A DNA stretch of 40,000 nucleotides from Synechococcus sp. CBW1108 (GTDB lineage: Bacteria > Cyanobacteriota > Cyanobacteriia > PCC-6307 > Cyanobiaceae): the NCBI RefSeq assembly GCF_015840335.1, contig NZ_CP060395.1, positions 1,609,277-1,649,276 of the forward strand, written 5' to 3'. Below the pieces are notes generated by a model. The model searched no databases, was not told the origin of the DNA, and saw nothing but the letters and a program-made list of their open reading frames with translations. The position numbers were made by a program, and so were the translations under genes. This document shows positions 6,002-24,541 of the stretch, one piece after another (positions within the stretch are counted from its first letter, which is position 1; each line of letters opens with the position of its first letter).

Positions 6002-6006
6002 CCTCG

Positions 6007-6291: not shown

Positions 6292-6310
6292 GGCCCGGCA
6301 ACGCCGGGCC
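6292..6310. terminator. GC-rich hairpin between convergent ORFs (bidirectional terminator candidate)
   Basis: ggcccggc (6292-6299) pairs perfectly with gccgggcc (6303-6310) around a 3-nt loop. It lies between the stops of 6007..6291(+) and 6322..6537(-). Confidence 0.45.
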
Positions 6311-6321
6311 AGGCCGCCGCC

Positions 6322-6537
6322 TCAGAGCACCGAGACGGTGCCGAGGTGCTTGGCGGCCAGCTTGCGGGCCAGCTGATGGGCCAGCGCCGCGGGGATGTAG
6401 CGGGGCTTTTTGACGGGGCGACCGCGGCGGCCATAGAAGACCGTGAGCCGCTCGGTGCCAGCGACCTTGCAGCCAGCGGGATAGGTGTGCAGCACCAGCT
6501 GACGGATCGGGCAGGCCAGGGGAGCAGAGGAGGCCAT
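6322..6537 (-). CDS. hypothetical small protein (71 aa)
   Basis: ATG start and very high GC3 (hand-read codons). Basic C-terminal half. Confidence 0.4.
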   Translation of the reverse strand: MASSAPLACPIRQLVLHTYPAGCKVAGTERLTVFYGRRGRPVKKPRYIPAALAHQLARKLAAKHLGTVSVL

Positions 6538-6926
6538 GGGATGGAGGCGAGGAACACCCGCCCCATGCCCCGGACGACGCGGCCTGGCAAGGGTCGGCGT
6601 AGCCGACTCGCGTCAGCCCTTGCCAGGCCGTGGCGAGCAGGGCGTAGCCCTGCGCTCCGGGGCAGTGCTGGTGATTCCTCGCCGACCCCATGGCCGGGCG
6701 ACTGGCCAGACCGGGACCTGCTGCGCTGCGGCTGCCTGGGCAGCCTTGAGCCGGGCATCGATCTCTGCTCTGCGGGAACGGTGACGTCGTCATCGCCGTA
6801 GGGATAGTCGATGCAGTAGCGCGGGATGGGTTGGCTCTGGTGGCTGCCCGGTCCCGCCACTTGTCAGCTCGCAAGAGGGAGCCATCAGGGCCCCTGCTTT
6901 AGAGCAGAGGCCCTGGATGCGAGACC

Positions 6927-7124
6927 TCAGAAGGGCAGCTCGCTCTCGGGGATGGGGCTCACAACAACGGGATTGAGGAGCTGCCGATCGAACAGCAGAT
7001 CAGCGCAGAGCCGCTCCAGCCGATCGAGGGGAACCGGGCGATGGGCGGCGGCTTCCTCGCAGAGCAGCTCCAGGGTGCGGGAGCTGAGGGACTGGAAGAA
7101 GCGGAGGCGGGATGCGGTAGCCAC
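6927..7124 (-). CDS. hypothetical small protein (65 aa)
   Basis: ATG start, high GC3, same strand as the peptidase block. Confidence 0.35.
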   Translation of the reverse strand: MATASRLRFFQSLSSRTLELLCEEAAAHRPVPLDRLERLCADLLFDRQLLNPVVVSPIPESELPF

Positions 7125-7305
7125 AGCAGGCGCAGCGAAGACCCCGAAGCAGGCCGGGCGGGGTCAAGGGGCAGTCACCGCTGAAAGGCGGAGCGCAGCG
7201 CAGCCAACGCAGGCCAGCGGCTGCCTCGCGTCAGCCCTTGAGGCCGCCCGGACCATGAGGAGGGCTGCGCGTAGCCGATCCACTAAGGGCTGATGGTGCG
7301 GCTGT

Positions 7306-7560
7306 TCAGCGGTCTGGATCCTGGCGGCGTGTGGCGAGGCTGCTGCCGCCGAGCAGGGCCAGGGCGGTGCCGAGGGCCGTTTCAAACGTGCGCTGCAGGT
7401 GCTCGGCGTAGCGGCTGCAGGCCGGGCCATGCCGTTGCTGCAGGCCCAGCCAGAAGCAACCGCCCAGGCCGGCGGCATAGAGCGCGAACTGGGCGATGAA
7501 CACCCCCGCCACGGCCCGCAGCAGGAAGCGCTCGCGATCAAAGCCCGCTGGATTCGCCAT
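7306..7560 (-). CDS. small hydrophobic/membrane protein (84 aa), holin-like position
   Basis: Internal ATG (cat at 7558-7560) of ORF 7306..8040, giving MANPAGFDRERFLLRAVAGVFIAQFALYAAGLGGCFWLGL...TALGTALALLGG, with two hydrophobic stretches. Starts 23 nt downstream of the peptidase stop. Confidence 0.45.
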   Translation of the reverse strand: MANPAGFDRERFLLRAVAGVFIAQFALYAAGLGGCFWLGLQQRHGPACSRYAEHLQRTFETALGTALALLGGSSLATRRQDPDR

Positions 7561-7583
7561 GGCTGCCGGCTGTGCCCCTGGGC

Positions 7584-8330
7584 TCAAGGGCAGCAGGTGA
7601 GCAGCCAGCCGGTGCCGGGGCCGTCGGCTTCCCAGCGGGGCAGCCAGTTCGTCCAGCTGTAGTGCTGGCCGGCGCCATTGGTGTTGGCGGTGTAGCCGCC
7701 GTGCACCAGATCGGCCTCGCCGTTGGGGTCGTGGTGGATGGCGTGACTGGCGGAGAAGCCGATCACGACACTCCAGTGGCCGCCGCCGGTGGGAGCCGTG
7801 GCGGGGCCGTGATGCAACCAGCCGACGGCGACAGGACGGCCGGCCTGGATCTCGGCCTCCAGGACGGTGCGATCCCCGTTGGTAGCGAAGTTCGCCGTCA
7901 GCCCGAGGGAGCGCAGGGCCGCCAGCTGGGCCTCGGCGGAGGTGGTGTCGCCGTAGCGGGCGCGGATGAGGTTGTACGCGTCGTCGCTGCTGACCTTGCC
8001 CCAGTAGCGGGCGAGCATGGCGCAGCTGCTGGAGAAGCACTCGCGGTAGCCGGTACCGGAGGCGTTGTCGTTCTGGTTCTCCCAGATCACGGGCAGCGGA
8101 TTGGCATGAACCGCTGCGGGTGGCGGCGAGGAGAAGGTCTGCCGCCAGGGAGCCGCCTCAGTCAGAACCGCAGGGTCTGCCGCGATGACGGCCTGGCGCA
8201 GCTGCTCGATGCCGTCCAGCTGCTGGGGCTGAGCCTGCCAGTGGTCCCAGAACTGGCGCCAGCGCTCCGCGCTGAATGGCGCCTGGGCTGCAGGCGATGG
8301 CGGGGATTCAGAGGCGGCGGTGGCGGTCAT
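7584..8330 (-). CDS. papain-like cysteine peptidase, C39-like domain protein
   Basis: The C-terminal 248 aa of the 658-aa ORF, with ATG at cat 8328-8330. Candidate Cys/His/Asp triad: FSSSCAML, GGGHWSVVIG, HHDPNG. The upstream part of the long ORF is antisense to the capsid gene and was rejected. Confidence 0.6.
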   Translation of the reverse strand: MTATAASESPPSPAAQAPFSAERWRQFWDHWQAQPQQLDGIEQLRQAVIAADPAVLTEAAPWRQTFSSPPPAAVHANPLPVIWENQNDNASGTGYRECFSSSCAMLARYWGKVSSDDAYNLIRARYGDTTSAEAQLAALRSLGLTANFATNGDRTVLEAEIQAGRPVAVGWLHHGPATAPTGGGHWSVVIGFSASHAIHHDPNGEADLVHGGYTANTNGAGQHYSWTNWLPRWEADGPGTGWLLTCCP

Positions 8331-8411
8331 GGCAGCTGGGCAGTCCTCTGCTGTTGCCGCCTCGGCAATAGCCGGTGACCTGCATGGGGCCGGGCCCCAC
8401 CTCTCCCTGTC

Positions 8412-9335
8412 ATGGGCCTCACCCTGATCGAGGCGGCCAAGTACGAAACCCGCCTGGAGCACCTCGCTGTGCTCAAGACCTTTGCGGAGGGTGAACTGCT
8501 GGCACGGCTGCCGTTTCTGAACATCAACGGCAGCGGTCTTTTTTATGCCGCCGAGCAGGAGCTGCCCTCGGTGGGGTTCCGGGCGGTGAACGAGGGCTAC
8601 AGCCAGAGCTACGGCGTGATCGACCAGCGGGCTGAGGCGGTGCACCTCTTTGGTGGGGATGTGGATGTGGACCGCTCGATCGTGGATCTGATGGGTCCGG
8701 AGGCCCGGGCCAGCCAGATCGAAATGAAGATCCGCTCGATGCGCCTCACCCTGGAGGCGACGATCGTGAATGGTGATGCCAGTGCCGATGCGCGGGCGTT
8801 TGATGGCCTGGCCCGGCGGCTGCCGGCAGGCGATGGGATGGCGATTGACAACGGCAACCAGCCGCTGGGCTTTGACCTGCTCGATGAACTGATCGATGCG
8901 GTGGACGGCATGGGCCGGCCCAAGGTGCTGCTGATGGGCCGTGCGATGCGTCGCCAGCTCAATGCCCTGGCGCGCAGCAGCAACTGCTGCTCCTACGTGG
9001 CGGAAACCAACGCCCTGGGGATGACGGTGCATCGCTACCAGGACTGCGAGATCCTGACGGTCGATCGCGACGCCCAGGGCCGTGAGGTGCTGGGCTATGG
9101 CGAGGCGGGCGGCAGCAGCTCGATCTACTGCCTGGCGCTGGGCGATCAGGGGGTGACCGGCCTGCAGGGACCGTTCCAGGGGCGCTATGGGATCTCGGTG
9201 CGGGATCTGGGGGAGGTGCCGGATGCCCCGGTGTTCCGCACGCGGGTGGATTGGTACGTGGGCTTTGCGGTGCTGCATCCGCGCGCGGCGGGGCGGCTGC
9301 ATGGGATCACGCCACCGCTGATCGCAACGCCCTGA
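8412..9335 (+). CDS. phage major capsid protein (HK97-fold type)
   Basis: N-terminus MGLTLIEAAKYE...LARLPFLNINGSGLFYAAEQELPSVGFRAVNEGY...LFGGDVDVDRSIV...IEMKIRSM...IVNGDASADARAFDGLARRL follows the conserved pattern of this capsid family. 307 aa. Confidence 0.7.
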   Translation: MGLTLIEAAKYETRLEHLAVLKTFAEGELLARLPFLNINGSGLFYAAEQELPSVGFRAVNEGYSQSYGVIDQRAEAVHLFGGDVDVDRSIVDLMGPEARASQIEMKIRSMRLTLEATIVNGDASADARAFDGLARRLPAGDGMAIDNGNQPLGFDLLDELIDAVDGMGRPKVLLMGRAMRRQLNALARSSNCCSYVAETNALGMTVHRYQDCEILTVDRDAQGREVLGYGEAGGSSSIYCLALGDQGVTGLQGPFQGRYGISVRDLGEVPDAPVFRTRVDWYVGFAVLHPRAAGRLHGITPPLIATP

Positions 9336-9403
9336 TCGCTGTGCGCTGACCCGATCCCGACCCTCGGCCTCAGCCCCCTGATTGCACGTTCCGGAGTTTC
9401 TCC

Positions 9404-9853
9404 ATGCCCTCGATTCCCCAGGCCCATCGCGGCAACCCGTTGATCGATGCCGAAACCACGCTGGTGGGGGTGATCGCCCACGGCGCCCTGCGCCCCGCCC
9501 CCAAAAAGTTCGTGAGCGGCGAGGTGGTGCGGTTGACCACCAAGCTCGATGCGGCGGCACGCTTCACGCTGGTGGCCAGCCACTCCAGCCACACCGCAGC
9601 GGTGACGGTGGATCTGCAGCTGGCGCCGCTGCTGATCGACGGTGCCACCGGCACGTTCGTGAGCGCCGTGAAGGTGTCGCTGCCCGCAGAAGGTGGCCGG
9701 GTGGAGGCGTATCTGAGTGGGCGTGACATCAGCATCGCCGCCGCCGATCAGACGCGGGTGCAGTGGCCGTGCATCTGTTTCGCCAAGGTCGTGGTAACGC
9801 CCTCGACGCCGGCGGATCTGCACGTGGGCCTGACCGCAACCATCCCTGCCTGA
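9404..9853 (+). CDS. hypothetical protein (149 aa), downstream of the capsid gene
   Basis: ATG start, co-oriented with the capsid gene, GC3-biased. Confidence 0.45.
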   Translation: MPSIPQAHRGNPLIDAETTLVGVIAHGALRPAPKKFVSGEVVRLTTKLDAAARFTLVASHSSHTAAVTVDLQLAPLLIDGATGTFVSAVKVSLPAEGGRVEAYLSGRDISIAAADQTRVQWPCICFAKVVVTPSTPADLHVGLTATIPA

Positions 9854-11698: not shown

Positions 11699-11736
11699 CT
11701 TTTCAGGACTGAGGTTCTGAAAAGGGCCAGAGGCCC
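11699..11736 (-). terminator. tandem hairpins downstream of the sigma-factor stop
   Basis: On the minus strand, GGGCC-TCT-GGCCC followed by TTTT. Then CTTTTCAG (11699-11706) pairs with CTGAAAAG (11717-11724), an 8-bp stem with a 10-nt loop. Confidence 0.4.
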
Positions 11737-12332
11737 TAGACCTCCAGCTGCAGCCTCAGGGAGGCGATGGCCTTTTTCTGGGCTCTCTGCACGGACATGG
11801 CACTGATTTCCAGCCGCTCGGCCGCTTGCCGGAGCGACAGGCCCTCGAGGAGAGTGAGCCGGAGGGCTGTGGCCTGGGCAGCAGGCAGCTGCTCGACCAG
11901 CTGCTCCAGCGCCAGGCCATGGATGGCTTCGCTGAGAGCCTGCCCGGCTTCTGGAGCGACCAGCTGATCGAGCAGGCAGGGCTCGCCATCAACGCTGGCA
12001 TCAAGACTGAGGTGCCCCAGCGGGCAATGGCCTTGCTCATGCAGCCGGCGCGGCACGCGCACCAGCCGCACCCGATCGCGCAGGTGGTGCTGCAGGGCCC
12101 CGCTGATGCAGCGGCGCAGATAAGGCCAAGCGGGCTCACCAGCTCTGCAGCGGGGAGCGGAGCGGACCAGGGCCTCCCGGGCCACCTGGATCAGATCCTC
12201 TCGCTCCACCAGCGGGAACAGACGCCGGGCGGCGGCGGAGGCAATGGCATCAGCCAGAGGCAGGTGCTCCAGCACCAGGGCATCACGGGCCTTGAGGGCC
12301 GAGCTGCTGAGGGGGGAAGCGGGGGAAGCCAT
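11736..12332 (-). CDS. sigma-70 family RNA polymerase sigma factor (group-3/SigF-like, 198 aa)
   Basis: Region 2 (EDLIQVAREALVRSAPR...WPYLRRCISGALQHHLRD) and region 4 HTH (LRLTLLEGLSLRQAAERLEISAMSVQRAQKKAIASLR). Start set at the ATG MASPAS (cat at 12330-12332). Confidence 0.8.
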   Translation of the reverse strand: MASPASPLSSSALKARDALVLEHLPLADAIASAAARRLFPLVEREDLIQVAREALVRSAPRCRAGEPAWPYLRRCISGALQHHLRDRVRLVRVPRRLHEQGHCPLGHLSLDASVDGEPCLLDQLVAPEAGQALSEAIHGLALEQLVEQLPAAQATALRLTLLEGLSLRQAAERLEISAMSVQRAQKKAIASLRLQLEV

Positions 12333-12940
12333 CGGCAGGACGGCGAAGAACCCCACCCCCACCGGCCGGCCGCAGCGCCGCGGCAAGGACGCCCCACAGG
12401 GGCGCATGGCCTGATCCGTGACGCGGCGTGAGGACTGGCCGAGGGATGCGGTGGGTGTGCGCCGGCCCTGGTGGCAATCCCCCTCCGCTGTTCTTTCGAC
12501 CAGCCAGCTAAGACCCCACAGCAACGCCCTCACCCGGGGCCGTGTGCTCAGGCCTGCTGGAGATTCCCGCTCCGATGCAAATCCCCAGCGTTCAGACCGG
12601 GATCAAGTTCAGGAATCTGATCCACGGCCTTGGGGATTGGCCGGCAGTTCCTCCAACTGTTCGGCCAATGCCCAGACGTTGTTAATCAGCGGTCCTATCG
12701 GGATCAGCAAAGCATCCCGCTCAAGCGATCCCATGGCGGTGACCCACACCTGGGCAGTGAGCTCAGCCAGCTACTTGCGGAGCTCGGCAAGGCGCTGTTA
12801 GCGATAGTCCATGAACGCATGCGTATCTGCGCTTAGTGCTCCTACAATCACCGCTTCCTGCCGCGAAGGACTGATGAGCAAGAATCAGCCAAAAGACGGC
12901 CCAATAGCAAACCGATGCAGGGCCAAGAAATAGCCCGGCA

Positions 12941-13615
12941 CTATTCATTATTCTGATCCTCTTGGATCGCGCCAGTCAAGCTGATTGGACGAGCTGCTTC
13001 CCCATCGCCAACATCAGTCGGAGCCCTGGAAAAGATTTCCGTCAATGAACTGGGGTAGTCCACAATATAATCACTGCCATCGTCAATCAGCGCGAAAAGC
13101 CTGCCAGATGGCTGCGAGTCTTGCACTCTTCCTATGCCAACAATAGATCGCTCAGATAGGCTTGTGATCCCCGAAGAAATGCTTATTTCCCGGAGCATTT
13201 TTTCCCTGGTTTGCTGGTCGACATTGATTAGCTGAGCCAGCCCATAGCCTTCGGTCTGAATTCCAGCATTAAAGGGCTTTGAGAGCTCGCTGAGCAGGCC
13301 CAATGGCATCTCAGCGTCATCACTTATTTTAATTCGCATCGTCTTATCTTTTCCAAGCTCAGCGACCCTACCCGGCAGCCCCATTTCCGCGCTGACCTTG
13401 TCTTTCCCCAGGGTTATGCCGCTTAGACGAGCACCATTGAAAGATAGCAATGCAAATAGGGATCCCACCAGAAACATCAGGGTGTTCACTTCCTTTATAG
13501 AAAGCGAGCCCAGAATAAAGAGCAGCCCGACACAGGCAAGCCAGATCCTTCCAATTGGATCCAAAAGGCGTTCTGCCTGGGACTGGCTATCGGGTGAGTG
13601 ACTGGGTTGACGCAT
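12941..13615 (-). CDS. hypothetical membrane protein (2 predicted TM helices plus a soluble C-terminal domain, 224 aa)
   Basis: IWLACVGLLFILGSLSI and LMFLVGSLFALLSF are hydrophobic helices. Starts 15 nt downstream of the brxL stop. Clearly AT-richer than brxL (hand-counted lines at 13201 and 13441: 52% and 42% GC). Confidence 0.55.
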   Translation of the reverse strand: MRQPSHSPDSQSQAERLLDPIGRIWLACVGLLFILGSLSIKEVNTLMFLVGSLFALLSFNGARLSGITLGKDKVSAEMGLPGRVAELGKDKTMRIKISDDAEMPLGLLSELSKPFNAGIQTEGYGLAQLINVDQQTREKMLREISISSGITSLSERSIVGIGRVQDSQPSGRLFALIDDGSDYIVDYPSSLTEIFSRAPTDVGDGEAARPISLTGAIQEDQNNE

Positions 13616-13629
13616 TGGATTTACTACTT

Positions 13630-15687
13630 CTATTCCTCCAGCCCCTTAAACACTGCATCCTCCGGATCCTTGTAGAACTCAATCGAGATCTTGGTCCAGA
13701 GGTCATCGGGTAGGTCGTTGAGGCCGCGGCGGGCTGAGACGGGCATCAACAGCACTTTGGCCTGCTTCTCCACGGCCAACTCGGCAATGGCGACGGCGTT
13801 GGGGATCATCTCAACGGAACCGCCGAGATTGAGGGAGCCGACGACGATGGTGCTGCCTCGGGTGTTGCGGTCGAGCAGGCCGCCGACCAGGGCAACCATC
13901 ACCGGCAGGCCGAGGCCGGCGCCGCTGCGATCGTTGTCCATGGCGCGGAGCTGGATCGAGAACTCATGGCCGCGGGGGTCGCGGTCACCCAGCAGGTTCT
14001 TGGCCCGGGCGTAGACGTTCTGCTCACCCACCTTGGTGCTCTCTCGGAAGGCAGGTGGCACGGGCTGGTTGAGGATCTTGACGCCGCTGCCCGGGCCGAC
14101 GGCCACCTCGATCCGGTAGAGGCTGGGGCCGGTTTCGCCGGTGCCGGGGCTGATGGCCCACACCTGGCCGGGCGGCAGGGGATCGCCATCAATGGCGTCG
14201 TCGCTGTGGAGCTCGGGCGTGGCCACGAACTTCTCCACCCCATCAAGGCCGAGGGTGTAGCTGAAGTGGGTGTTGCGGAACTCGCTCTTGAGGCAGCGCT
14301 TCTGCTGCTCTTTGACCCGGCGACGTGATTCGAGCGCCAGGCGCACGATCCATTCGAGATCCTCGTCGGGGATCTCCATCTCGGGATCGGGGAACAGCAG
14401 CTTGATCAGGGCGCTCACCGTTTTGTTGACGCCCTCGATGTCGCGGCCGCTGAGGGCACCGCCGAGGTGTATCCGGTTTTGCAACGCCGCCAGGCGGCTG
14501 CCATCGCGCAGGCGGCTCCAGCACTCGCTGAGGAAGTCGCTAACCAATCCGAAGTGACTGGTCAGGTGCTCGTTGGGGTTGAGCTTGGGGAAATCCCAGC
14601 CGGGGGCGTAAGCGTGGATGCGGTCCTGGAAGGCCGTGTCATCGCGCATCTCCCGCGGCAATGGGCTGAGCAGGTGGCCGATCCGCTGCTGCTGCTCCAC
14701 ATCAACATCGAAGTTGCCCACCATCACGATGCCGCCTTCAGCACGAATGCTCTCCTTGCCGCGGCTGAACTCACCGGAGGCCATGTAGCCCTTGAGGATA
14801 TTGACGCCGTCTTTCTGGTCGAACGACACTCCGGCCACCTCGTCGAAGCAGACCACGTCGTATTGGCAGACCAGGCCGCGCTGGCCATTGCTGTTGTTGA
14901 CGAACATCTTGGCGACGGTGGCCTTGCCGCCAGAGATCAGGTGGGAGTAGGGGGAAATCTGCTGGAACAGGTGGCTTTTGCCCGTACCTCGCGGGCCCAG
15001 CTCCACCAGGTTGAAGTTGCGCTCCACGAAGGGAGCCATGCGCAACAGCACCACCATCTTGGCCCGCTCATCGAGGGCTGTTGGCTCGAGGCCGATGGAG
15101 CGAATCAGGAAGTCACGCCACTCCTCTGTGGTGAATGAAGCGCGGCCCTTGGCCAGGATCCCCAGCACGTTGGGGTTGGACATCTGGATCGGCCGCAGCC
15201 CAGCAATGCGGAAGGGCCGGCCGTTGCGCTCCTGGGCGATCACCGGGTCGTATTCCAGTGACACCTCGGCGTAGAAGCCATCGGTGAGCATGCGCTCGTT
15301 GGCGCGCACCAGCTCGTCGTCGATCTGGGCGTCCTTGATGGCGAGGCTGGGCACCTCCGCCATGTAGGAGTCGCTGCGGGTGTCGAGTCGAGCTCGCACA
15401 ATGTCGATGATCTTGACGCTGCCCTGATCCCGGGCCCTGGCTTTGAACAGCTCCTCCTCGCCGGTGCGCACCGTTCGGCCCTGGAGCTGCTTTTCCACGA
15501 TCTGCAGCCCTTCTTCGATTTCGCCCGGATCGGTGCTGGCGCAGTAGCGGCCCAGCAGGAACTCCACCACGTAGGTGGGTACCGGGTATTGGCGGGAGTA
15601 CTTGCGGACCAGGAAGCCATCAAAGGCCTTGGCGCCGAGCTGGTCGAGCTGGTCCATCTCGCTGGTGGCAGCGGGTGTGCTGGTCAT
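13630..15687 (-). CDS. brxL: BREX-type Lon protease-like ATPase BrxL
   Basis: N-terminal VRKYSRQYPVPTYVVEFLLGRYC...EEGLQIVEKQL pattern of BrxL. AAA+ Walker A GPRGTGKSH and Walker B VVCFDEV. C-terminal Lon-protease-like domain (RSGAGLGLPVMVALVGGLL...EKQAKVLLMP). 685 aa. Confidence 0.85.
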   Translation of the reverse strand: MTSTPAATSEMDQLDQLGAKAFDGFLVRKYSRQYPVPTYVVEFLLGRYCASTDPGEIEEGLQIVEKQLQGRTVRTGEEELFKARARDQGSVKIIDIVRARLDTRSDSYMAEVPSLAIKDAQIDDELVRANERMLTDGFYAEVSLEYDPVIAQERNGRPFRIAGLRPIQMSNPNVLGILAKGRASFTTEEWRDFLIRSIGLEPTALDERAKMVVLLRMAPFVERNFNLVELGPRGTGKSHLFQQISPYSHLISGGKATVAKMFVNNSNGQRGLVCQYDVVCFDEVAGVSFDQKDGVNILKGYMASGEFSRGKESIRAEGGIVMVGNFDVDVEQQQRIGHLLSPLPREMRDDTAFQDRIHAYAPGWDFPKLNPNEHLTSHFGLVSDFLSECWSRLRDGSRLAALQNRIHLGGALSGRDIEGVNKTVSALIKLLFPDPEMEIPDEDLEWIVRLALESRRRVKEQQKRCLKSEFRNTHFSYTLGLDGVEKFVATPELHSDDAIDGDPLPPGQVWAISPGTGETGPSLYRIEVAVGPGSGVKILNQPVPPAFRESTKVGEQNVYARAKNLLGDRDPRGHEFSIQLRAMDNDRSGAGLGLPVMVALVGGLLDRNTRGSTIVVGSLNLGGSVEMIPNAVAIAELAVEKQAKVLLMPVSARRGLNDLPDDLWTKISIEFYKDPEDAVFKGLEE

Positions 15688-16130
15688 GCCAACACCTCCA
15701 GCTGAAGGAGCTGGGCGGCCTGATTCAGACGCCGGTCGTAGCAGGCGAAGGTGACCGATTCACCGAAGGTGAGTCGTAACTCATGGGCTGCCGCCAGCTG
15801 CACACTGTCGTAACCCCTGAGCGCAAATCCATCTGCGAAACGCCCAGCCGCTTCGACTAATTGCTGGCTGACTTCAACAATGGTGAACGACGGCCAAAGC
15901 TTGATTAGACGTTGACGTGCCAAGTCGATTTCATCAGCACTGGTTGAATCTTCCCGCTGACGACGTGCCATCGCAGCCATGGCCTCGGCCCAGGTCATTC
16001 TGCAGGCTGCGATCACGCCCGCACGTTCGCTGGCCTGGTGGATCTGAGCTGAGTCAGGCTCATCAATCAAAAGCTTGATCAGGGCACTCGTATCGCAGAA
16101 CAGAAGCACGCGCTTAACCCCGGTCTTCAA
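15684..16130 (-). CDS. vapC: PIN-domain toxin (VapC family)
   Basis: VLLFCDTSALIKLLIDE (N-terminal acidic PIN motif) and later GYDSVQLAAA. The stop overlaps the brxL ATG (ATGA at 15684-15687). The start is either TTG at 16130 or GTG at 16109. Confidence 0.75.
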   Translation of the reverse strand: MKTGVKRVLLFCDTSALIKLLIDEPDSAQIHQASERAGVIAACRMTWAEAMAAMARRQREDSTSADEIDLARQRLIKLWPSFTIVEVSQQLVEAAGRFADGFALRGYDSVQLAAAHELRLTFGESVTFACYDRRLNQAAQLLQLEVLA

Positions 16131-16407
16131 TCACGATCTCGCTGATGAGCTTCCCTTTGCCTCTGAGCTTGATGGGCGGGGGGAACACGGGCTTCTGCCC
16201 GCTCCAGCTGATCAGGCCCGCATCAATCGCCTTCTGCAGCGGGCTGGTGATCCCTGAGTCCGCTGGCTTCACAGCTGTGATGCGGGCGATGGGCTTGCGA
16301 TGGGAGGTGACTTCCACCACCTCGCCCGCCTGGGCACGGGCCAGCCACTCGGAGAGGTGGGTCTTGAGATCCCGCACCGACACCTGACTTGCGACCACAT
16401 CGGCCAT
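16114..16407 (-). CDS. Phd/YefM-family antitoxin
   Basis: MADVVASQVSVRDLKTHLSEWLARAQAGEVVEVTSHRKPIARI is the typical Phd/YefM N-terminus. C-terminus ...GKLISEIVIEDRG. ATG at cat 16405-16407. Overlaps or abuts the vapC start. Confidence 0.7.
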   Translation of the reverse strand: MADVVASQVSVRDLKTHLSEWLARAQAGEVVEVTSHRKPIARITAVKPADSGITSPLQKAIDAGLISWSGQKPVFPPPIKLRGKGKLISEIVIEDRG

Positions 16408-16510
16408 GGCTGTCTCCGATTCCGCGACCACGCTAGGTCTGATTTCGCTGGTCATGCTTCTCCTCCAACCACGGTGCGGCGCTGGGCGATGACGCGCCCC
16501 TCAGGGCTGA

Positions 16511-16813
16511 TCAACACGGCCACGACCACGGCTCCTTCCTGTCCTCGTCGTGGTTGGAGCGGAACTGACCGAGCCGGTTTCGCGGCGGCAGGTGCCGCAC
16601 CACAGGCGACGGCACGCCGCCATCGGGGCCGCCACCACCAGGGCCCCTGGCCCCGGGGCGGCCGGAGTCCATGAAGTAGGTGGCGGCCGATTGCCCGGCC
16701 AGGGCGATGGCGGGAAGGGCCAGGGACCAGCGGCTATCGCACAGGGCGATGTCGGTGGCGCGGGCCTCACAGACGCCCACAAAGGCCATCAACGAAAAGA
16801 TCTCCGCACCCAC
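16511..16813 (-). CDS. possible small hydrophobic/Gly-rich protein (100 aa); weak call
   Basis: GTG-initiated ORF with two hydrophobic stretches (IFSLMAFVGV, WSLALPAIALAG). Competing ORFs exist in other frames of this GC-rich stretch. Confidence 0.2.
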   Translation of the reverse strand: MGAEIFSLMAFVGVCEARATDIALCDSRWSLALPAIALAGQSAATYFMDSGRPGARGPGGGGPDGGVPSPVVRHLPPRNRLGQFRSNHDEDRKEPWSWPC

Positions 16814-16907
16814 CAGGGCCAGGATCGGGGCGGAGTTGCTGCTCAGCTGCGGTTAGCCCTCTATGGGCCTTTGCCAGGCAGCCCAGCGGCTGAGCTGGGA
16901 AGGGGCC

Positions 16908-17069
16908 TCAGCCCCCGCCAGAGAGCTGCTGCCGCATGGCGGCGATGGCCTTCTTCTGGGCCCGTATCACCGACATGGCGCTGACCTCAAGCCGCTCGGC
17001 CGCAGCCCACAGTGACAAGCCCTCGGGGACGATAAGCCTGAGAAAGGGGCCTGAGCTGCCGGGAACGGT
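16908..17069 (-). pseudogene. orphan 3' remnant of a sigma-70 family gene (region 4 only)
   Basis: Hand translation of the minus strand gives (stop)TVPGSSGPFLRLIVPEGLSLWAAAERLEVSAMSVIRAQKKAIAAMRQQLSGGG(stop). This aligns with LRLTLLEGLSLRQAAERLEISAMSVQRAQKKAIASLRLQLEV of 11736..12332 (about three-quarters nucleotide identity by eye). There is no upstream region 2/3, and an in-frame stop sits at 17070-17072. Confidence 0.6.
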
Positions 17070-17094
17070 TCAACAAGCAGCATGGACCCAACGA

Positions 17095-17137: not shown

Positions 17138-17338
17138 GCCAGGGGACGCACCGTGGCACACATGGCTAGCCTGCCCTCAACTTCGTAGGCCTAGTGAGAG
17201 ACCTCCGCGAGAGGACAAAGCAAAGGAGCGGGGACCACAACGCTCAGGTGCAGTTGCTTGGAAATCCAGACCCGTCAAGCTGGGCAGGATTGAGCAACAA
17301 CCAGTTTGGGCATAAATCAAACCCACACTCGCAATAAC

Positions 17339-17716
17339 ATGGAAATATTTAAGGACTTCACGTTTGAGGCCGCTCACTATCTGCCAAACGTCCCAGAAGG
17401 ACACAAATGCAGGCGACTTCACGGCCATTCCTTCAAGGTACGCATCTATGTGAAAGGGCCGACGGGATTGGAATCTGGTTGGGTGCAGGACTTTGCTGAA
17501 ATAAAAAGAGCCTTCAAGCCATACTACGAGCAACTAGACCACCATTACCTGAATGAGATAAAGGGGCTCGAAAATCCTACGTGTGAGAACCTAGCGGTCT
17601 GGATCTGGAGCAAGTTGAAAACAGACCTACCTCTATTGAGTCGCGTAGAGACCTTTGAGACTTGCACGAGTGGATGCATCTACTTCGGGCCGGACTTGGA
17701 AGGAGCTGAGCAATGA
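17339..17716 (+). CDS. queD: 6-carboxy-5,6,7,8-tetrahydropterin synthase QueD
   Basis: [34 protein letters not shown]...LDHHYLNEI is the classic QueD/PTPS signature. ATG at 17339 (internal to ORF 17306..17716). Confidence 0.85.
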
Positions 17717-19770
17717 AAGTAGTTGTTATCACGTCGTGCACTGGTGAAAAGACTGCTTCTCATAGCCGTCAGCTAACACTGGACGACTTCCAAGCAGGAC
17801 CGGAACATGTGCGAATGCGGGAGGCTGAACTCGCGGAGAATCTCGTTGACGCCGAAAGGCTCTACAGCGGCCAGCAACATCTTCGGCTGATGAGGGGAGT
17901 GGAGGCCTTCCGGTCGGCATATCCCCCCAATGGAACAGGACCAAGCCTTGATCTCCATATTCTCTCCGCAGGGTATGGCCTAGTACCAGGAGACAGGCAC
18001 ATCGCTCCATACGAGGCCACCTTTCAAGGGATGAAGGCCAAGGAGCTGGAGTCATGGGCATCCCAACTGCAGGTGGCTGCGTCATTGCGGAGGTGTCTTG
18101 ATCAACCTTATGACATAGGTCTTGTCCTCCTGGGCGACTCGTACCTCAAGGCTTGCCGGCTGGATGAGATTGAGAGAGTGGGAGGACCGACCCTGTTGTT
18201 ATGCGGAAAGAATGCCGCGGGCAGGATACCGAAAGTCGCCAATTTGAAGGTAGTCATTCTTACCAATGAAGAAGCTAAGCGCTTTTCATGCGGGTTAGTT
18301 GCGTTAAAAGGTGAAATGGCATCTCGAATCCTGCATGGTCTCGCAGACTCAACACTAGACCCCTTACAACTGGTGAATACTGATGAGCTTCTGGACGAGA
18401 TCTACCGCAACAATAAAGTGACACCAGGGACCCCTGGGCGGAGGGCTGCAACGCCAAAACCGGACGTTGATCAAGTTATTTCTCTACCGGACACCTGGCT
18501 CCAAAAGCCTCACAGGGAGAAGCTCAGCTACTTCATCCCAGAATGGGACGACCTGGTCGACCGTGATTTCGACTTTGGCAACGACATTCACTCAGGTGGA
18601 GGTGGAGATTGGTCAAACGAAGTCTATGCACATCAGCTGTATCCAGAACCAAACTATGATGGAATCTTGATTTCCAAAGTGGTAGCGGAAAAAAGCAAGA
18701 GGAAGAAAGAGCGCATCAATCGGCTTGGTGTACATCGTTATCTCCGTGTGCCACGCGAGTTTCCAATCATGGGAGACTGTGGGGCGTTTGGCTATATACA
18801 AGAAGCCGTTCCACCGTACAGCACAGAAGAAATTTTAGACTACTACACCCGCCTAGATTTTGACATGGGTGTATCTATTGATCATCTCATTGTATCTGCA
18901 ACAGAGTCCGTAAAGCAGGAGAGATATGGGCTTACTATCGCTAACGCGGAGGAGTTCCTTAAGGAACACAGAAAAGCAAAGCTTCCGTGGACACCAATCG
19001 GCGCCGTCCAAGGTTGGGATCCCAAAAGCTACGCAGCAGCGGCTAAGGACTATGTGGCCATGGGGTACCAGTACATCGGACTGGGTGGCCTCGTTAGAAC
19101 TTCAACCAGGGATATTCTTGAACTGTTGACGGCAGTTCATGAGGTGGTTCCATCCAATGTCAAGATCCATCTCTTTGGTCTGGCAAGAATAGATTCAATG
19201 AAGACTTTCTCTGATCTTGGGGTCAGCTCGGTTGATAGCGCCTCATTGCTCCGAAGGGCATGGATGGGTACAGGCCAGAACTATCTCAGCATTGAAGGTA
19301 AATTCTTCACCGCCATTCGCATTCCCGAAGCTAACAAGAGCTTTCGCGCCAAACGAATGGTCTCCGAGCGTCGAGCAAGCTCCTCAGAGGTCGAGAAGCT
19401 GGAACGGATATCACTCCATGCGCTACGCGAGTACGACGCTGGCAGAAAAAACATCGACGAGGTCCTCGATGCTGTAGAAGAGTATGACCGCCTAATTACA
19501 CCAGACCGAGATCCAACAAGAACTCTAATACGAGAAACACTAGAAGCCGCCCCCTGGAAGAGATGCCCTTGCGAGATCTGCAAACGCGATGGCATTGAGG
19601 TAGTGATCTTTAGGGGTAACAACCGTAATCGGCGCAGAGGATTTCATAATACTTATGTATTTTACCGTTTGCTTCAGAAAGTATTGGCTGGTGAGGCTGT
19701 GAGCTTCAAACGCAAACCGGACCAGCTGAACCTGTTTGGCGAGCCGGGGGAGATATCGGATGAGGTTTGA
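17713..19770 (+). CDS. fusion protein: uncharacterised N-terminal domain (about 230 aa) plus C-terminal TGT/DpdA-family transglycosylase domain with Zn motif
   Basis: C-terminal half carries TGT-family motifs: MGDCGAFGY (the DSGGFQ position), [11 protein letters not shown] (the GYAIGGL position), HLFGLAR...GVSSVDSAS (the nucleophile-Asp position) and CPCEIC...H (CxCxxC...H Zn site). N-terminal half reads ITSCTGEK...YSGQQH...ILSAGYGLV...IAPYEATF, which from memory resembles the DUF6884-type pattern. ATGA overlap with queD. Confidence 0.75.
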
Positions 19771-20941
19771 TGTGCACCTCCGTAAGACGGTACAACGTCA
19801 ACTTGCTTCCGTTGCCCAATCCATGGCTGATTGGGATTCGCATCAAAGCAATGTCGATATTCAAAAACGCCTTGCCTCAGCGATTCGCCCCTTTAGTCAT
19901 ACAACACGTTGGACGGGATACTGCGGTGGTGTTGATGGTACGGGCGACTTTCCTGCGATTTCCTATGCCGACTCCTTCGTGTACGTGAGCGTGGCGGCAG
20001 GAGCTCTTTACCGGTCGGACCCCGTGAGTGGCCTTAAGGAACTCGAGCAGGAGGCAAGTCCGTTGGTGGAATTCACCTGGCTGACATCTAGCCACCAGCA
20101 GCGCCAGAGTGCGCTGTTGGCTTCATTTGAGCAACTGGTAGGGACATCGGTGGACGATGTACTTCAGCATTCTGACTATGCTGATCTTGGCTCTTCAAGT
20201 GTGGAGAAGCGCAGGATTAACTCACTGATCATCCCTCCAGCCTATGACGCTGGAAATCTGGGCATACAATTACGAACCACGGCAGAACTGGCCGTAGCTC
20301 TTAAATTGATCGAATCGGCGCCCAAGGGGACGCTAGTTCTTACCGATGGCACGATGTCGCTCCCGCTTGCGGGCCGCTCGAAGCAGAGCCTGTTCTTTGA
20401 GCATCTGCGCCGCTATTGCTGCGTTCGAGCACGGGAGCGGGGAGTGGTCTTCGCTTCTCTCTCGAAGTCGAGTGGCTTACCCACTGGAATCAGGATTGAG
20501 GATGCAGCTAAGGCCGCTCTAGGAATCAATGAACCGGAACACTGGTTCGTAAGAGTACCCACGAAACAGCTCGACGACTGGAGTCTGTTCCCAGATGATG
20601 GTCCGCAGGTTCCTCCGACGGGAGCGGTGAGCTACTTGGTTCGCTTGCACCGCAAAAGCCCGGTCATGCGGCTCGACCTTGATCAGCAGTACTGGCAATC
20701 CGCAATTGCCACAGGCGACGTCGAGAAGAATGAGCAAAAGCTGTTTGCTTCACTCGACTACGTGAGCCACGATCAGCGTTCCTATGGGTATCCTTATCCC
20801 ATCAAGGCAGCTCATGATCGTGCTTCTCTCACAGAACACGAACGTACAGTGTTGCGTCAACAACTTGTTGAGTCTGCCGTTCAAGCAGGCATATCTCGAG
20901 ATGCCTTTCGTGACCCTTCTCAAATGACCGGGCATCGATAG
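19760..20941 (+). CDS. nurA: NurA-domain nuclease
   Basis: GGVDGTGDF, LVLTDGTMSL and SYGYPYPIKAAHDRASLT match the conserved NurA motifs. ATG at 19760 overlaps the upstream gene by 11 nt (the ORF-track start at 19736 is TTG). Immediately upstream of herA. Confidence 0.7.
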   Translation: MRFDVHLRKTVQRQLASVAQSMADWDSHQSNVDIQKRLASAIRPFSHTTRWTGYCGGVDGTGDFPAISYADSFVYVSVAAGALYRSDPVSGLKELEQEASPLVEFTWLTSSHQQRQSALLASFEQLVGTSVDDVLQHSDYADLGSSSVEKRRINSLIIPPAYDAGNLGIQLRTTAELAVALKLIESAPKGTLVLTDGTMSLPLAGRSKQSLFFEHLRRYCCVRARERGVVFASLSKSSGLPTGIRIEDAAKAALGINEPEHWFVRVPTKQLDDWSLFPDDGPQVPPTGAVSYLVRLHRKSPVMRLDLDQQYWQSAIATGDVEKNEQKLFASLDYVSHDQRSYGYPYPIKAAHDRASLTEHERTVLRQQLVESAVQAGISRDAFRDPSQMTGHR

Positions 20942-20949
20942 GAGGCAGG

Positions 20950-22761
20950 ATGGCATCACTCGAGCAACTTGTAGAGATTCTAGGCCAACGGTTTGGCGTG
21001 TTAGCTGAAAGCAGCACAACGCAGCTCACCGTCATCGCTCAGAACTCTGATGTAGCGATTGGAGACCTGTTCCTATTGCCGTGTCGACGAGGACCAGATC
21101 GCTTCTATGTGTTCCGGGCAACCGAGTATGCCAATGTCCTGAATCGAACGATCGACATCGGCGACGTCGCGCGCAACAAGTTGACGATGCCTGACTCCTA
21201 TTTTTCTGAAAACCTTGCTGAAGAGCAGCTGGTGGAGTTACGAGGTTTGATTCTGGGCTATGCGCAGCACGATCAGGATCAAGACGTCTGGCTGTTCTAC
21301 CGGCCTAGACGCTTGCCACAGCATCTTACGGATGTGTTCCGAGTTGATCCAAGCCGTGATGCATGTGGCCACGTCGTGGGTGAACTCCTCAGGTCTCAAC
21401 TGGGCTCAGCTGGCCTCCATATCGGGAATCTGCTGGCTGGAGAGGACGCTCTGACATCAGTACCGGTTTATCTACCGATCGCTGCATTGGCACATCACCT
21501 GGCTGTGTTTGGCAGGACAGGCTGTGGTAAGAGCAACTTGATCATGACCCTGCTCCACGAAGTGCTTCGCCACAACTTGGAGGTTAACCGGGGGCAACTG
21601 ATCGAAAGACGAGCATCCATCTTTGCGATTGACCCACACGATGAATTTCGGACATGGCACTCCAATTCGGGAGGGGCGGATGGCATCAGAGGACTAGTCA
21701 CTGCTCTTTCTGAGGGCGAAACAGAAGAGCTAGCAGCCCCTTTCTACTACCTGACCTCTCGCGATGTCCTTGATGGTCCGCTGGAGGCCCGGGTAACCCT
21801 GTCGAGAGCTGATATCACGCCCGATGATGTCGTGAGCATCATGGACTTCTCCGAACAGCAGGTGGCGTTCGCAAGACAGTTGTTTGGTGAGCATGGGGAA
21901 CGGTGGATCGGACGGCTCTTTGCAGGGGACGTGGATGACCCGAATGGTGACGAGGGGGGAGCACAGTTCCTTCCGGGAAGCATTGCAGCGGTGGAACGGC
22001 GCATGGGTTTCCTCGCCCATGGCGCGACCCGCTTGGTGAGCAGGTTTGATCCAGACGCAGGTCTGGCTTATCAGTCCAAGTTGCCTGACATCCTGTCCTC
22101 ACTCGAGCGAGGGCGACTGCTGATCGTGGACACGACTCTCCTAGGCGAACTCGAGCAGTTTTTGCTAAACACGATTGTCGCCCGTACACTGTTTGCTATG
22201 CGAAGAGCACTCCGTCTGGCCGATACCCCAGAGCGCCTGCGGCACGAGCTGTTTGGAGTCCTCGGAGTAGATGACGAAAACGGACGCATCGGACAGCGGA
22301 CCCTCGCTGACTCTCTATGGGAGCGCATTGAAAATGATGACGTTCCGTACCTTGATGGTACAAGGGTTCGCTCACCCGATGAACTGCCAGTCGTTCATAT
22401 TCTTGTTGAAGAAGCGCCGAGTGTTCTAAACCCTGTACGAATGAAGTTCGGAAGCGTCTTCCGCGACATCAGCCGTCAAGGTCGAAAGTTTGGCATTGGC
22501 CTGGGGTTAGTTAGCCAACAGGTTTCGGAGATCGATCGGGGGATTTTGACGCAGGTAAATACGCAGCTTACAATGGCACTAGGTAATGCAGATGAACGAC
22601 GTGAGGCTGTGCGAGTTGCCTCTACAGATATCGGCGGCTTTGCCCAGGAGCTACAAGTCCTTAGCCGCGGACAATTGGTGATGTCTACCAGTCTAAGAGA
22701 TGTAGCTTTGCCTGTACAAGTTGCAAGTTATGAGGGGACGAGAAGTAGACATGGCTGGTGA
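20950..22761 (+). CDS. herA: HerA/FtsK-class ATPase (HerA helicase-like)
   Basis: Walker A FGRTGCGKSN, Walker B-like VVHILVEEAPS, RKFGIGLGLVSQQVSEID...VNTQLTMAL is the typical HerA C-terminal region. GGAGG Shine-Dalgarno sequence at 20941-20945. Confidence 0.8.
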   Translation: MASLEQLVEILGQRFGVLAESSTTQLTVIAQNSDVAIGDLFLLPCRRGPDRFYVFRATEYANVLNRTIDIGDVARNKLTMPDSYFSENLAEEQLVELRGLILGYAQHDQDQDVWLFYRPRRLPQHLTDVFRVDPSRDACGHVVGELLRSQLGSAGLHIGNLLAGEDALTSVPVYLPIAALAHHLAVFGRTGCGKSNLIMTLLHEVLRHNLEVNRGQLIERRASIFAIDPHDEFRTWHSNSGGADGIRGLVTALSEGETEELAAPFYYLTSRDVLDGPLEARVTLSRADITPDDVVSIMDFSEQQVAFARQLFGEHGERWIGRLFAGDVDDPNGDEGGAQFLPGSIAAVERRMGFLAHGATRLVSRFDPDAGLAYQSKLPDILSSLERGRLLIVDTTLLGELEQFLLNTIVARTLFAMRRALRLADTPERLRHELFGVLGVDDENGRIGQRTLADSLWERIENDDVPYLDGTRVRSPDELPVVHILVEEAPSVLNPVRMKFGSVFRDISRQGRKFGIGLGLVSQQVSEIDRGILTQVNTQLTMALGNADERREAVRVASTDIGGFAQELQVLSRGQLVMSTSLRDVALPVQVASYEGTRSRHGW

Positions 22762-24541
22762 ACGTAAAGGACTAACCTACGAAGCTATTGTCAGGATCGC
22801 GCTTGACAAACTTGCCACACAGACTAAGGATTCACGCAATATCTTCTGGAATGCAAAGCCTGCTTCAATGACCATTGAGCCAGACTTTACTATTGGCCAA
22901 GAGGCTAATTCACCAGATGCAGTAATACTGGTAACGCATAGTGGCTCTGCCAAAGATTCTGAGAAGAAGTTCTGGAGGAATCTTGGAGAGCTCGTCGAGG
23001 CTAAGACAAGGCTTCTAAAGTCCCCTCTCGTCTACTCAATTGCTTTTGACTCAGTCATCAAGGAAGATCTCAAGCAGATACAGGCCTGTGCATTTGATGG
23101 CCAACTTGTAGTTGGTGATCACGCCTATGGATCAGCACTTCTAAGTTTTGTCTCGCAGTTCCACAATAAACTACCAAAGGACAAGGACGACAAGGTTGAT
23201 GCAATCAAGAATATAATATCAGATCGCGACTATTCTGATATTCTGAATGCGATCCTTCGACTGTCTGAACATATAGCAGACCTGCTAATTGGCCAAAATG
23301 ACGACCTCCAAGGAGCATGGGAGCTCCATAAGAGTCACGTTGCGGGCCGGATGCCAATGGCGCATGATTCATTAGTTAGACGTGGCATGCTCAAAGCAGC
23401 TCTTCTTGGAGAAATACCGGACCATTCAAAGCCAATGTCGAAAACGGCAACACTCATTGCGCAACAACTTCGACTGGCGCGTAAGGAAGATATCGCTACT
23501 CGCTCGATTGTAGGTTCGCGATTAGCTGACAAAGACCTGGTCTGGTTATCAAGGTCCAATCTAAATGCGATTGATGTCGCTAGGCTTGTTGAAAAGTTTG
23601 GGACTCAAGGATTCCAACGTCAGCTCATAAAGCTAAGATCTGTAGCACTACTTCCTGAGTTCTTGAGATATACACAGGCAAACCGATCAAAGCTCATTAC
23701 TCCAGAAGGGATGAAAGCTGCTTTGCAACAGCTTCATAAAGATCCATCTGACGCACTCTCGATCCAAGACGGAATTCCGTCCCCATCCACTGTCTGGATG
23801 TATGACTTTATTGCAGCAGTTGTAAAGGCTCGTTCAAAACGAGCGCAAGACTTCGGCTACTCCACGTTCGCGAAGTCACCGGATCCCAAAGGAAGAATGA
23901 TAGGCAATATGGATGTCGGCACATGGTGCAGTTGCTTCATGAACCAGTATTTTAACCGGAGTCCTAATTTTAGTGCCCCACCTGCTGCAATTGAACATTG
24001 CGCATCCATTCTTGCAGGTGCCCTTGCATCTGGTGATCCAGCCGAACTCAGGGGACCTATCGATGAGATCAGAGAACAATATATCAATAAAGAACTTGAG
24101 GTGGGCCTGCTTACTCATCGCGGATTCGATCCAGTTGGCTCGCTTATTATTGAAGCTCTTGAAGAGGCAGGTCTATCCCACCAATTAGAAACATGTCCAG
24201 GTATTTTTGCAGAACGTGCAAGATGCGATGGCCGCATCAGCAATCAACGCTCAGGTTCGACAACCTTGCTACGAACTAAGAATACATTGGTCAACTGGCA
24301 GTCTGCACATGACTCTCATACCAATGACAAGCGAAAGGAACTATGCGGTCGCATATCAGCAATTCGTTATTCCTGGAACCCCGTAGAAAGCAGGTGCACA
24401 AAAAAGGAAGGAATAGATAAGTTTATCTTAGTTGTTGACGGAACATGGTGTGAGGCCGACTTGCAAGCACTTGCAGCTTCTGGTTGGGACGAGATCTACT
24501 ATCCAGACGAAGTGGCAATCCTTATTAAGGCAATCGTCTGA
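22751..24541 (+). CDS. hypothetical protein (596 aa), no family recognised; possible nuclease-like terminal domains
   Basis: ATG at 22751 overlaps herA by 11 nt. N-terminus EPDFTIG...DAVILVTHSGSAKDSEKKFWRNLGEL and C-terminus TLVNWQSAHDSHTNDKRKELCGRI share a similar motif, which might indicate a restriction-endonuclease-like fold. This is very tentative. Confidence 0.6.
   Translation: MAGERKGLTYEAIVRIALDKLATQTKDSRNIFWNAKPASMTIEPDFTIGQEANSPDAVILVTHSGSAKDSEKKFWRNLGELVEAKTRLLKSPLVYSIAFDSVIKEDLKQIQACAFDGQLVVGDHAYGSALLSFVSQFHNKLPKDKDDKVDAIKNIISDRDYSDILNAILRLSEHIADLLIGQNDDLQGAWELHKSHVAGRMPMAHDSLVRRGMLKAALLGEIPDHSKPMSKTATLIAQQLRLARKEDIATRSIVGSRLADKDLVWLSRSNLNAIDVARLVEKFGTQGFQRQLIKLRSVALLPEFLRYTQANRSKLITPEGMKAALQQLHKDPSDALSIQDGIPSPSTVWMYDFIAAVVKARSKRAQDFGYSTFAKSPDPKGRMIGNMDVGTWCSCFMNQYFNRSPNFSAPPAAIEHCASILAGALASGDPAELRGPIDEIREQYINKELEVGLLTHRGFDPVGSLIIEALEEAGLSHQLETCPGIFAERARCDGRISNQRSGSTTLLRTKNTLVNWQSAHDSHTNDKRKELCGRISAIRYSWNPVESRCTKKEGIDKFILVVDGTWCEADLQALAASGWDEIYYPDEVAILIKAIV

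Follow-up and report, generated by a model that had tools for sequence, protein, structure and literature searches.

Type 1 bacteriophage exclusion (BREX) loci, for which the 2015 report of Goldfarb et al. is said to be the reference, carry their core genes in the order brxA-brxB-brxC-pglX-pglZ-brxL, as in the Acinetobacter and E. coli systems. The stretch of DNA analysed here (40,000 nucleotides (nt); hereafter the window) comes from Synechococcus sp. CBW1108 (contig NZ_CP060395.1, positions 1,609,277 to 1,649,276), a picocyanobacterium with a high content of guanine and cytosine (GC). It carries a clear brxL orthologue, the last core gene of that order, with the 3′ end of pglZ upstream, together with a phd-vapC toxin-antitoxin (TA) pair and a gene for a protein with two transmembrane helices (2-TM). 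The locus differs from type 1 BREX in that the window lacks brxA, brxB, brxC and pglX, that 28 codons of pglZ are left and that BrxL has a private N-terminal deletion of five residues; it is predicted to be unable to methylate or restrict as BREX. With a probability of roughly 85 %, as judged from sequence comparison, phd-vapC-brxL-2TM represents the non-functional 3′ tail of a type 1 BREX operon that has lost its front. This reading is favoured because a pglZ stub is still attached, because the same gene order closes the pglX/pglZ loci of relatives and because no orphan BrxL was met among 71 evaluable loci. An earlier note, made from the letters of this stretch, had proposed either a BREX remnant or an autonomous module; the former proposal is upheld here.

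BREX methylation and restriction need PglX, PglZ, BrxC and BrxB (PMC12839542), and the solved BrxL homologue forms an AAA+ ring that loads on DNA and lacks a protease motif (PMC10164562). In BREX loci, embedded nucleases of the PIN and other types have been described as effectors with an auxiliary or backup role (PMC12839542). Such embedded modules include PIN, HEPN and OLD-ABC/PARIS-like proteins (PMC12839542) and BrxU in pEFER (PMC8565348); the window resembles these loci in that a PIN RNase with its antitoxin is inserted between pglZ and brxL, and sister loci fill the same slot with an AAA_15/21 ATPase plus a 142-amino-acid (aa) protein, a Fic protein or a 478-aa protein. It differs from them in that the core system is gone and the auxiliary module is left with brxL; in addition, the Phd-VapC insert is lineage-specific and its stop codon is coupled to the brxL start. 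In natural Synechococcus-like populations (Candidatus Regnicoccus frigidus), pglX or brxL of BREX loci can be truncated, and pglZ and brxL vary in their presence (PMC9716671). Patchy and truncated BREX in picocyanobacterial populations is thus shared with the window, whereas that study gives gene presence and coverage and reports neither a TA-anchored 3′ tail nor the junction described below.

Results

Truncation of pglZ

Window positions 16538-16455 matched residues 751-778 of the alkaline-phosphatase-like PglZ protein of a relative with 89 % identity (tblastn, E 5e-9); of the full-length pglZ expected of a complete type 1 locus, these residues alone remain. The stop codon of the stub shares bases with an ATG (16455) that precedes the phd start by 48 nt. 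In a DNA alignment, homology to the pglZ-phd junction of L003 (fetched loci are referred to by L numbers) started abruptly at ∼16549. A blastn search against 114 fetched loci gave over 30 alignments to independent BREX loci that ended at window positions 16535-16549, and none extended further; in the loci concerned, pglZ runs on for 2.3 kb. Because all of these independent alignments stop at 16535-16549, position ∼16549/16550 is taken as the truncation junction, at which pglZ upstream of its last 28 codons appears to have been lost.

No remnants of PglX or BrxC were detected in the whole 40 kb by Pfam, PADLOC or tblastn searches with PglX and the C-terminus of the presumed BrxC, the latter query being taken from the large protein that L032 encodes upstream of pglX. 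The set of pglX and brxC, with brxA and brxB, that marks a complete type 1 locus is accordingly missing from the window. A DEAD-box helicase (28976-31606) matched the generic HamB, BrxHI and DpdF helicase models and sits in a Dpd-like island. The earlier note had seen nothing resembling brxA/B/C, pglX or pglZ nearby; for pglX and brxC this holds throughout the 40 kb, but pglZ has left its stub directly upstream of phd. For annotation pipelines this is a caution: where "BrxL" is called in isolation, pglZ stubs should be looked for.

Gene order in BREX loci of relatives

BrxL loci were surveyed in GTDB species-representative genomes (80 loci, 71 of them with usable upstream DNA, the other nine cut by contig edges). 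Since pglZ sequence was found directly upstream of brxL in 71 of 71 evaluable loci, orphan BrxL does not appear to be a recurring architecture. Of the 21 cyanobacterial species that could be evaluated, 14 carried Phd-VapC between pglZ and brxL; the 55 loci from other phyla all lacked it there. The order pglZ-phd-vapC-brxL was observed in L003/L004, L028, L036, L039, L040, L042, L045, L047, L048 and L098; where the upstream region was examined, pglX was present in L003/4, L028, L036, L039, L045 and L047, and a short PglX piece alone in L098. In the metagenomic loci L003 and L004, genes for PglX, PglZ, Phd, VapC and BrxL occur in this order, with three or four extra genes between those for PglX and PglZ and, after brxL, a gene for a 226-aa protein homologous to the 2-TM protein; L028 reads PglX...PglZ-Phd-PIN-BrxL. 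A 2-TM gene follows brxL in L003/4, L029 and L052. The brxA, brxB and brxC genes of these relatives are expected further upstream, outside the fetched flanks.

The junction between pglZ and brxL varies among loci. In L017, L018, L020 and L032 the two genes are joined directly with a 4-nt overlap; the slot holds a gene for a 478-aa protein in Synechococcus BA-124 and a Fic gene in the first gene set of L029. In freshwater picocyanobacteria the junction thus acts as a slot for accessory modules, taken by Phd-VapC in two thirds of the evaluable species. Of the TA pair and the 2-TM gene, each can be present without the other: L020 and L017/18 have the 2-TM gene but no TA pair, L036-L048 the pair but no 2-TM gene. 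The earlier note had called for a survey of BrxL homologues with Phd-VapC or membrane-protein neighbours; in the survey the gene order was conserved inside BREX loci alone, and the TA pair and the 2-TM gene behaved as optional add-ons.

Two further observations concern these loci. The slot is occupied in L010-L015 (∼7952-9825 in L010), and also in L049 and L051, by genes for an AAA_23/AAA_15/AAA_21 ATPase (424 aa) and a 142-aa protein, and this pair resembles OLD-ABC-type backup modules described for BREX. L036 and L047 lie ∼60 kb apart on one contig (JBIKMU010000012.1) of a Cyanobium metagenome-assembled genome (MAG), as two BREX loci; both encode PglX and PglZ, and each has a Phd-VapC insert and a brxL of its own, the BrxL proteins being 94-96 % identical to window BrxL.

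Other eroded loci

Two loci resembled the window in their loss of upstream genes. Positions 1-10522 of L029, a Lake Mendota-type metagenome contig, encode PglZ-Fic-BrxL (674 aa), a 5′ fragment of a sigma gene, PglZ residues 434-778, Phd, PIN, BrxL (690 aa), a 2-TM protein (173 aa) and a DUF1810 protein; from this arrangement, an incoming BREX locus would have displaced the front of a resident one. In L070 (8185-11680, Cyanobacteriota MAG), PglZ residues 1-102 are joined in frame to residues 669-777 and phd-vapC has remained intact, and two frameshifts divide brxL among three reading frames; the 8 kb upstream, with housekeeping-type genes, yielded no pglX. The window, L029 and L070 appear to be three independent erosions from the 5′ side, each leaving a TA-bearing tail. 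Decay of this kind, with the TA-bearing 3′ end kept in three cases, fits TA-mediated retention of neighbouring DNA.

Organisation of the tail

The features of the tail and its surroundings are listed in Table 1. The four coupled minus-strand genes described earlier are present and co-directional, and all except the 2-TM gene have family matches. The reported contact between phd and vapC was likewise recovered: the GTG start of vapC lies 4 nt past the phd stop, and the alternative TTG start at 16130 would overlap phd. The vapC stop and the brxL start share the sequence ATGA at 15684-15687, as had been noted, and the spacing between brxL and the 2-TM gene, previously given as 15 nt, was measured as 14 nt.

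Table 1. Features of the BREX tail and its surroundings (window coordinates).
Feature	Position	Strand	Description and basis
pglZ 3′ stub	16452..16549	-	last 28 codons and TGA stop; tblastn, DNA alignment, blastn
phd/yefM-family antitoxin gene	16114..16407	-	97 aa; ATG start at 16407; PF02604, TIGR01552
vapC, PIN-domain toxin gene	15684..16109	-	141 aa; GTG start at 16109; PF01850
brxL, AAA+ DNA-binding BREX factor	13630..15687	-	685 aa; C-terminal domain Lon-like but non-proteolytic; PADLOC, TIGR02688, PDB 8EMC
site of private in-frame 15-nt deletion in brxL	15598..15612	-	minus 5 residues of LVRKDLVRK; between imperfect direct repeats
2-TM gene	12941..13615	-	224 aa; N-terminal 2-TM hairpin and soluble C-terminal domain; small uncharacterised brxL-linked family
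filler between sigma scar and pglZ junction	16550..16888		∼340 nt; no blastn match in 114 loci
orphan 3′ fragment of sigma-70-family gene	16889..17081	-	148-nt direct repeat; matches L018/L041 sigma 3′ ends
intact sigma-70-family (SigF-like) gene	11736..12335	-	Sigma70 region 2 and region 4 matches

A possible further gene of 61 codons at 12763-12948, suggested in the earlier note, was rejected: in the nearest relatives (L024-L027, contigs of ∼94 % nucleotide identity), its open reading frame (ORF) contains three stop codons and a change of frame. The 93-aa ORF called on the opposite strand in L024-L027 was discarded too, being itself interrupted by a stop in the window. A scan of 11.5-17.5 kb for promoter and terminator consensus sequences gave nothing above shuffled expectation, with a sigma-70-type consensus that may not suit a cyanobacterium.

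BrxL

BrxL was identified as a clear orthologue by family models and a solved structure (PF13337, E 6.7e-127; PF20442; PADLOC BrxL, E 4e-281; TIGR02688, 435.9 bits with a cutoff of 329.3; PDB 8EMC, E 5e-152). The Walker A (GPRGTGKS) and Walker B (VVCFDEV) motifs are preserved and align to those of 8EMC, including E280, and the protein has the BrxL_N, AAA+ and Lon-like C-terminal domains of the family, with weak PF13541 and PF05362 matches. The BrxL proteins nearest to it, 96-98 % identical, come from Synechococcus and Cyanobium genomes and from freshwater metagenomes; metagenomes of the Lake Mendota type are the source of the window's closest relatives.

The C-terminal domain has a Lon-C fold with weak sequence similarity to Lon (PF05362, E 0.0024 and 17.9 bits, below the cutoff of 21.1; 1RR9, E ∼1e-5). 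In the alignment the Ser-Lys dyad of the Lon (S16) peptidases is lost, E. coli Lon Ser679 being replaced by Gly and Lys722 by Val. The statement that the Walker and Lon-like motifs look intact was therefore right for the former and wrong for the catalytic dyad. Because the dyad is absent, window BrxL is unlikely to degrade Phd; proteolysis of the antitoxin by BrxL, which had been suggested as a possible link between the genes, was rejected on account of the missing dyad together with the lack of a protease motif in the solved homologue (PMC10164562). In classical activation of type II TA systems, labile antitoxins are degraded by Lon; BrxL is alike in the fold of its C-terminal domain and differs in the Gly and Val at the dyad positions, and no protease motif occurs in the BrxL that was solved.

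A 15-nt in-frame deletion, private to the window, strips five residues from the conserved LVRKDLVRK segment and with them part of the N-terminal VRKDL motif. The motif, in the form [VIL][VIL]RKD[LIVM], is kept in 120 of 120 top homologues and lost in window BrxL; its distance to VPxYV is 11 residues in 119 of the 120 (one was not matched by the spacing pattern) and 6 in the window. The window-specific branch of brxL carries 2 nonsynonymous changes, both conservative, and 17 synonymous ones. The deletion is probably a first private lesion on the way to the pseudogene state seen in L070.

As a separate observation, BrxL proteins of picocyanobacteria are 77-82 % identical to those of Planctomycetota, Acidobacteriota, Bacillota and Myxococcota and the adjacent PglZ proteins 40-51 %, an unusually large gap in conservation for neighbouring genes of one operon.

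Phd-VapC

Phd was recognised by PF02604 (E 3.9e-07, 30.2 bits, cutoff 29.8) and TIGR01552 (30.8 bits, cutoff 20.8), and its start is common to the orthologues of L003, L028 and L029 (66-92 % identity). The PIN domain of VapC was found with PF01850 (E 3.1e-11, 44.4 bits, cutoff 23.6), and four orthologues share the acidic residues D6, E42, D101 and D125 without exception. Pairwise ratios of nonsynonymous to synonymous substitution rates (dN/dS) were 0.16-0.33 for phd and ∼0.15 for vapC. With a Phd-family gene directly before a PIN gene that retains the four acidic residues, the pair is of the Phd/YefM-VapC type II kind, and it shares with such pairs the order of antitoxin and toxin and a spacing of 4 nt; unlike them it does not stand alone, being translationally coupled to the downstream brxL.

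The 2-TM protein

The predicted membrane protein of 224 aa was confirmed to have two hydrophobic helices (residues 20-37 and 44-59). No Pfam, NCBIfam or PADLOC model matched it; its AlphaFold2 model was moderate (mean per-residue confidence score, pLDDT, 61), and Foldseek gave no PDB match. The family comprises 52 clusters at 90 % identity and eight representatives at 50 % identity among 1.84 billion proteins, and falls into length classes of 173-183 aa and 224-231 aa with the transmembrane hairpin common to both. A scan of genome contigs with the 224-aa protein found no relative, and one of metagenome contigs a single short locus, L019. A hidden Markov model of the family matched exclusively the ORF that directly follows brxL in the same orientation; this held for 33 fetched loci, among them several duplicate contigs, and for the window, whose protein shows the features of the family: a hairpin with FLVG...NG, a soluble C-terminal domain and a gene directly 3′ of brxL. 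Given this exclusive linkage, the protein is a candidate partner of BrxL, as a BrxL-associated accessory protein. Pairwise dN/dS values of 0.25-0.36 argue that the gene is a real coding gene.

The 2-TM gene is AT-richer than brxL, as had been remarked (50.5 % GC versus 64.1 %). The later recruitment deduced from this contrast was discarded, because the same contrast was found in every carrier locus, with 43-53 % GC for the 2-TM gene and 62-64 % for brxL. As an aside, a DUF1810 gene repeatedly follows the short form (173-183 aa) of the 2-TM gene 3′ of brxL (L010, 12708-12980; L029, 10509-11036; L032, 10612-11064).

Surroundings of the junction

The tail is bracketed by a 148-nt direct repeat of 72 % identity (11717-11864 and 16895-17042) derived from the 3′ end of the sigma gene. 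The upstream copy belongs to a 5′-truncated sigma fragment, which shares 82-83 % identity with the 3′ ends of the sigma genes in L018 and L041. The filler between this fragment and the pglZ stub has a GC content of 70.7 %. A sigma gene is syntenic 3′ of brxL in L018, L041 and L044; L003 and L036 have sigma fragments after brxL, and in L029 a sigma fragment separates the incoming BREX locus from the truncated one. The fragment in the window is best read as a scar of recombination that lies between the Dpd-like island and the BREX stub. Islands at this hotspot may have been exchanged by recombination anchored near the sigma gene, with illegitimate joins leaving the 3′ end of the resident locus. 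The sigma repeat was also considered as the att-like ends of a 5-kb mobile element; this was rejected, as the copies are only 72 % identical, their orientation is not the one expected for integration into the 3′ end of the gene and the pglZ junction lies 340 nt away.

Discussion

The ancestral locus would have had the order pglX - (extra genes) - pglZ - phd - vapC - brxL - 2TM, followed by the sigma gene, an order that is still seen in freshwater Cyanobium and Synechococcus. Everything upstream of the last 28 pglZ codons would then have been lost at the junction, and the stub would have come to be joined to 340 nt of unmatched DNA, the sigma scar and a 19-kb Dpd-like island. Since PglX, PglZ and BrxC are absent from the window, BREX methylation and restriction would be gone from this locus. 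Phd-VapC would be the sole self-sufficient unit left. Type II TA systems stabilise chromosomal islands, a role that Szekeres et al. (in 2007) and Wozniak and Waldor (in 2009) reportedly treated. By analogy, the tail was probably retained through the TA pair: loss of the labile antitoxin would free the RNase toxin, so that deletions of the pair would be disfavoured, and brxL and the 2-TM gene would have been carried along as co-transcribed passengers. The pair may still give some protection by abortive infection, in the role of "backup suicidal effector" proposed for PIN nucleases in BREX.

Several points weigh against an inert tail. All four ORFs are intact, and the 2 nonsynonymous against 17 synonymous changes on the brxL branch, taken with the intact ORFs, imply either a recent truncation or continued selection on these genes. 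Survival of the same tail in at least three independent truncations could indicate a function of its own. Retention by the TA pair is argued from general knowledge of such systems, and a sigma-70-type promoter consensus, which may not suit a cyanobacterium, was not found upstream of phd. Absence of the core genes is established for the 40 kb, and a second BREX locus using this brxL is possible elsewhere. If the sequence is metagenome-derived, the junction would rest on assembled sequence.

Three other explanations were considered. Phd-VapC, BrxL and the 2-TM protein might form a self-sufficient module, in which BrxL senses DNA or degrades Phd and the cell is killed by VapC, the membrane protein or both. 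The intact, translationally coupled ORFs, pairwise dN/dS below 0.4 in all four genes, retention of the tail in the independent truncations of the window and L029 and the strict attachment of the 2-TM gene to brxL would all suit such a module. It is nevertheless improbable: in every evaluable locus brxL comes after pglZ sequence, the TA pair and the 2-TM gene are found without each other (L020, L017/18 and L036-L048), the Lon dyad is missing and the solved homologue has no protease motif, L070 has kept the TA pair intact with a frameshifted brxL, and the window deletion falls in a motif that is otherwise invariant. The absent dyad, the conservation of the gene order inside BREX loci alone and the optional nature of the two add-ons thus also speak against the autonomous module put forward in the earlier note. 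A related idea, that the tail is a minimal abortive-infection unit in which BrxL would be loaded onto DNA that invades or replicates, with the 2-TM protein, VapC or both as effectors, is equally doubtful; if it were true, a tail that works by itself would explain why the same tail with intact ORFs survived truncation in the window and in L029.

A displaced brxL, serving in trans a BREX locus elsewhere that lacks its own copy, is most unlikely. Several BREX loci can occur in one genome, as on the Cyanobium MAG contig with L036 and L047, and the search for BREX genes covered the 40-kb window; however, the known two-copy loci each have their own brxL, and the attached pglZ stub points to truncation in place rather than to translocation of brxL. 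There is just as slight a chance that the join at ∼16550 is a chimera of the assembly and that the real genome has a complete BREX locus upstream. An exact-sequence look-up of window BrxL met no record in public assemblies, and the junction does lie near the repeated sigma fragment, repeats being typical sites of mis-joining, but the breakpoint is ∼340 nt from the repeat and not within it, and analogous truncated architectures occur in the independent assemblies of L029 and L070.

As the eroded tail favoured here, the locus is an ordinary type 1 BREX remnant with accessory genes of known kinds, and its novelty is low; alone it matters little, adding a further decayed defence locus to a hotspot of defence islands. 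Three side observations deserve modest interest: in picocyanobacteria a Phd-VapC insert is coupled to brxL, a family of 2-TM proteins is linked to that gene, and TA-bearing tails have survived repeatedly.

Neighbouring islands

Beyond the sigma scar, window positions 17306-35924 (∼19 kb) form an island of lower GC content (46-60 %, compared with ∼69 % in the flanks) with a Dpd-like set for 7-deazaguanine DNA modification and restriction. It encodes QueD, a fusion of a DUF6884/DpdC-like protein with DpdA (685 aa; NF041059, E 6e-133), NurA, HerA, an unknown protein of 606 aa, a UvrD helicase, a PD-(D/E)XK nuclease, a second short TGT/DpdA-like protein, a helix-turn-helix protein, QueC and a QueE-like radical S-adenosylmethionine (SAM) protein, as well as two DEAD-box helicases with HhH, one of them also with SWIM. 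The pairing of NurA with HerA and the DpdC-DpdA fusion look non-canonical for dpd clusters. A gene for tRNA-Gly(TCC) (38854-38937) lies ∼3 kb beyond the right end of this island.

On the other side of the tail, positions 2155-9560 carry phage-like genes of host-like GC content, among them genes for a DUF4055 portal-like protein (2155-3579) and a GP7/SU10-type major capsid protein (8412-9335); a C39-like peptidase domain (7584-9560) is encoded on the strand opposite to the other phage-like genes. This region is possibly a degraded prophage beside the sigma gene. Next to it, a low-GC islet (387-2090, ∼49-53 %) encodes a DUF6155 protein and a SAM-dependent methyltransferase, which was also matched by PADLOC as mad2 (E 4e-16).

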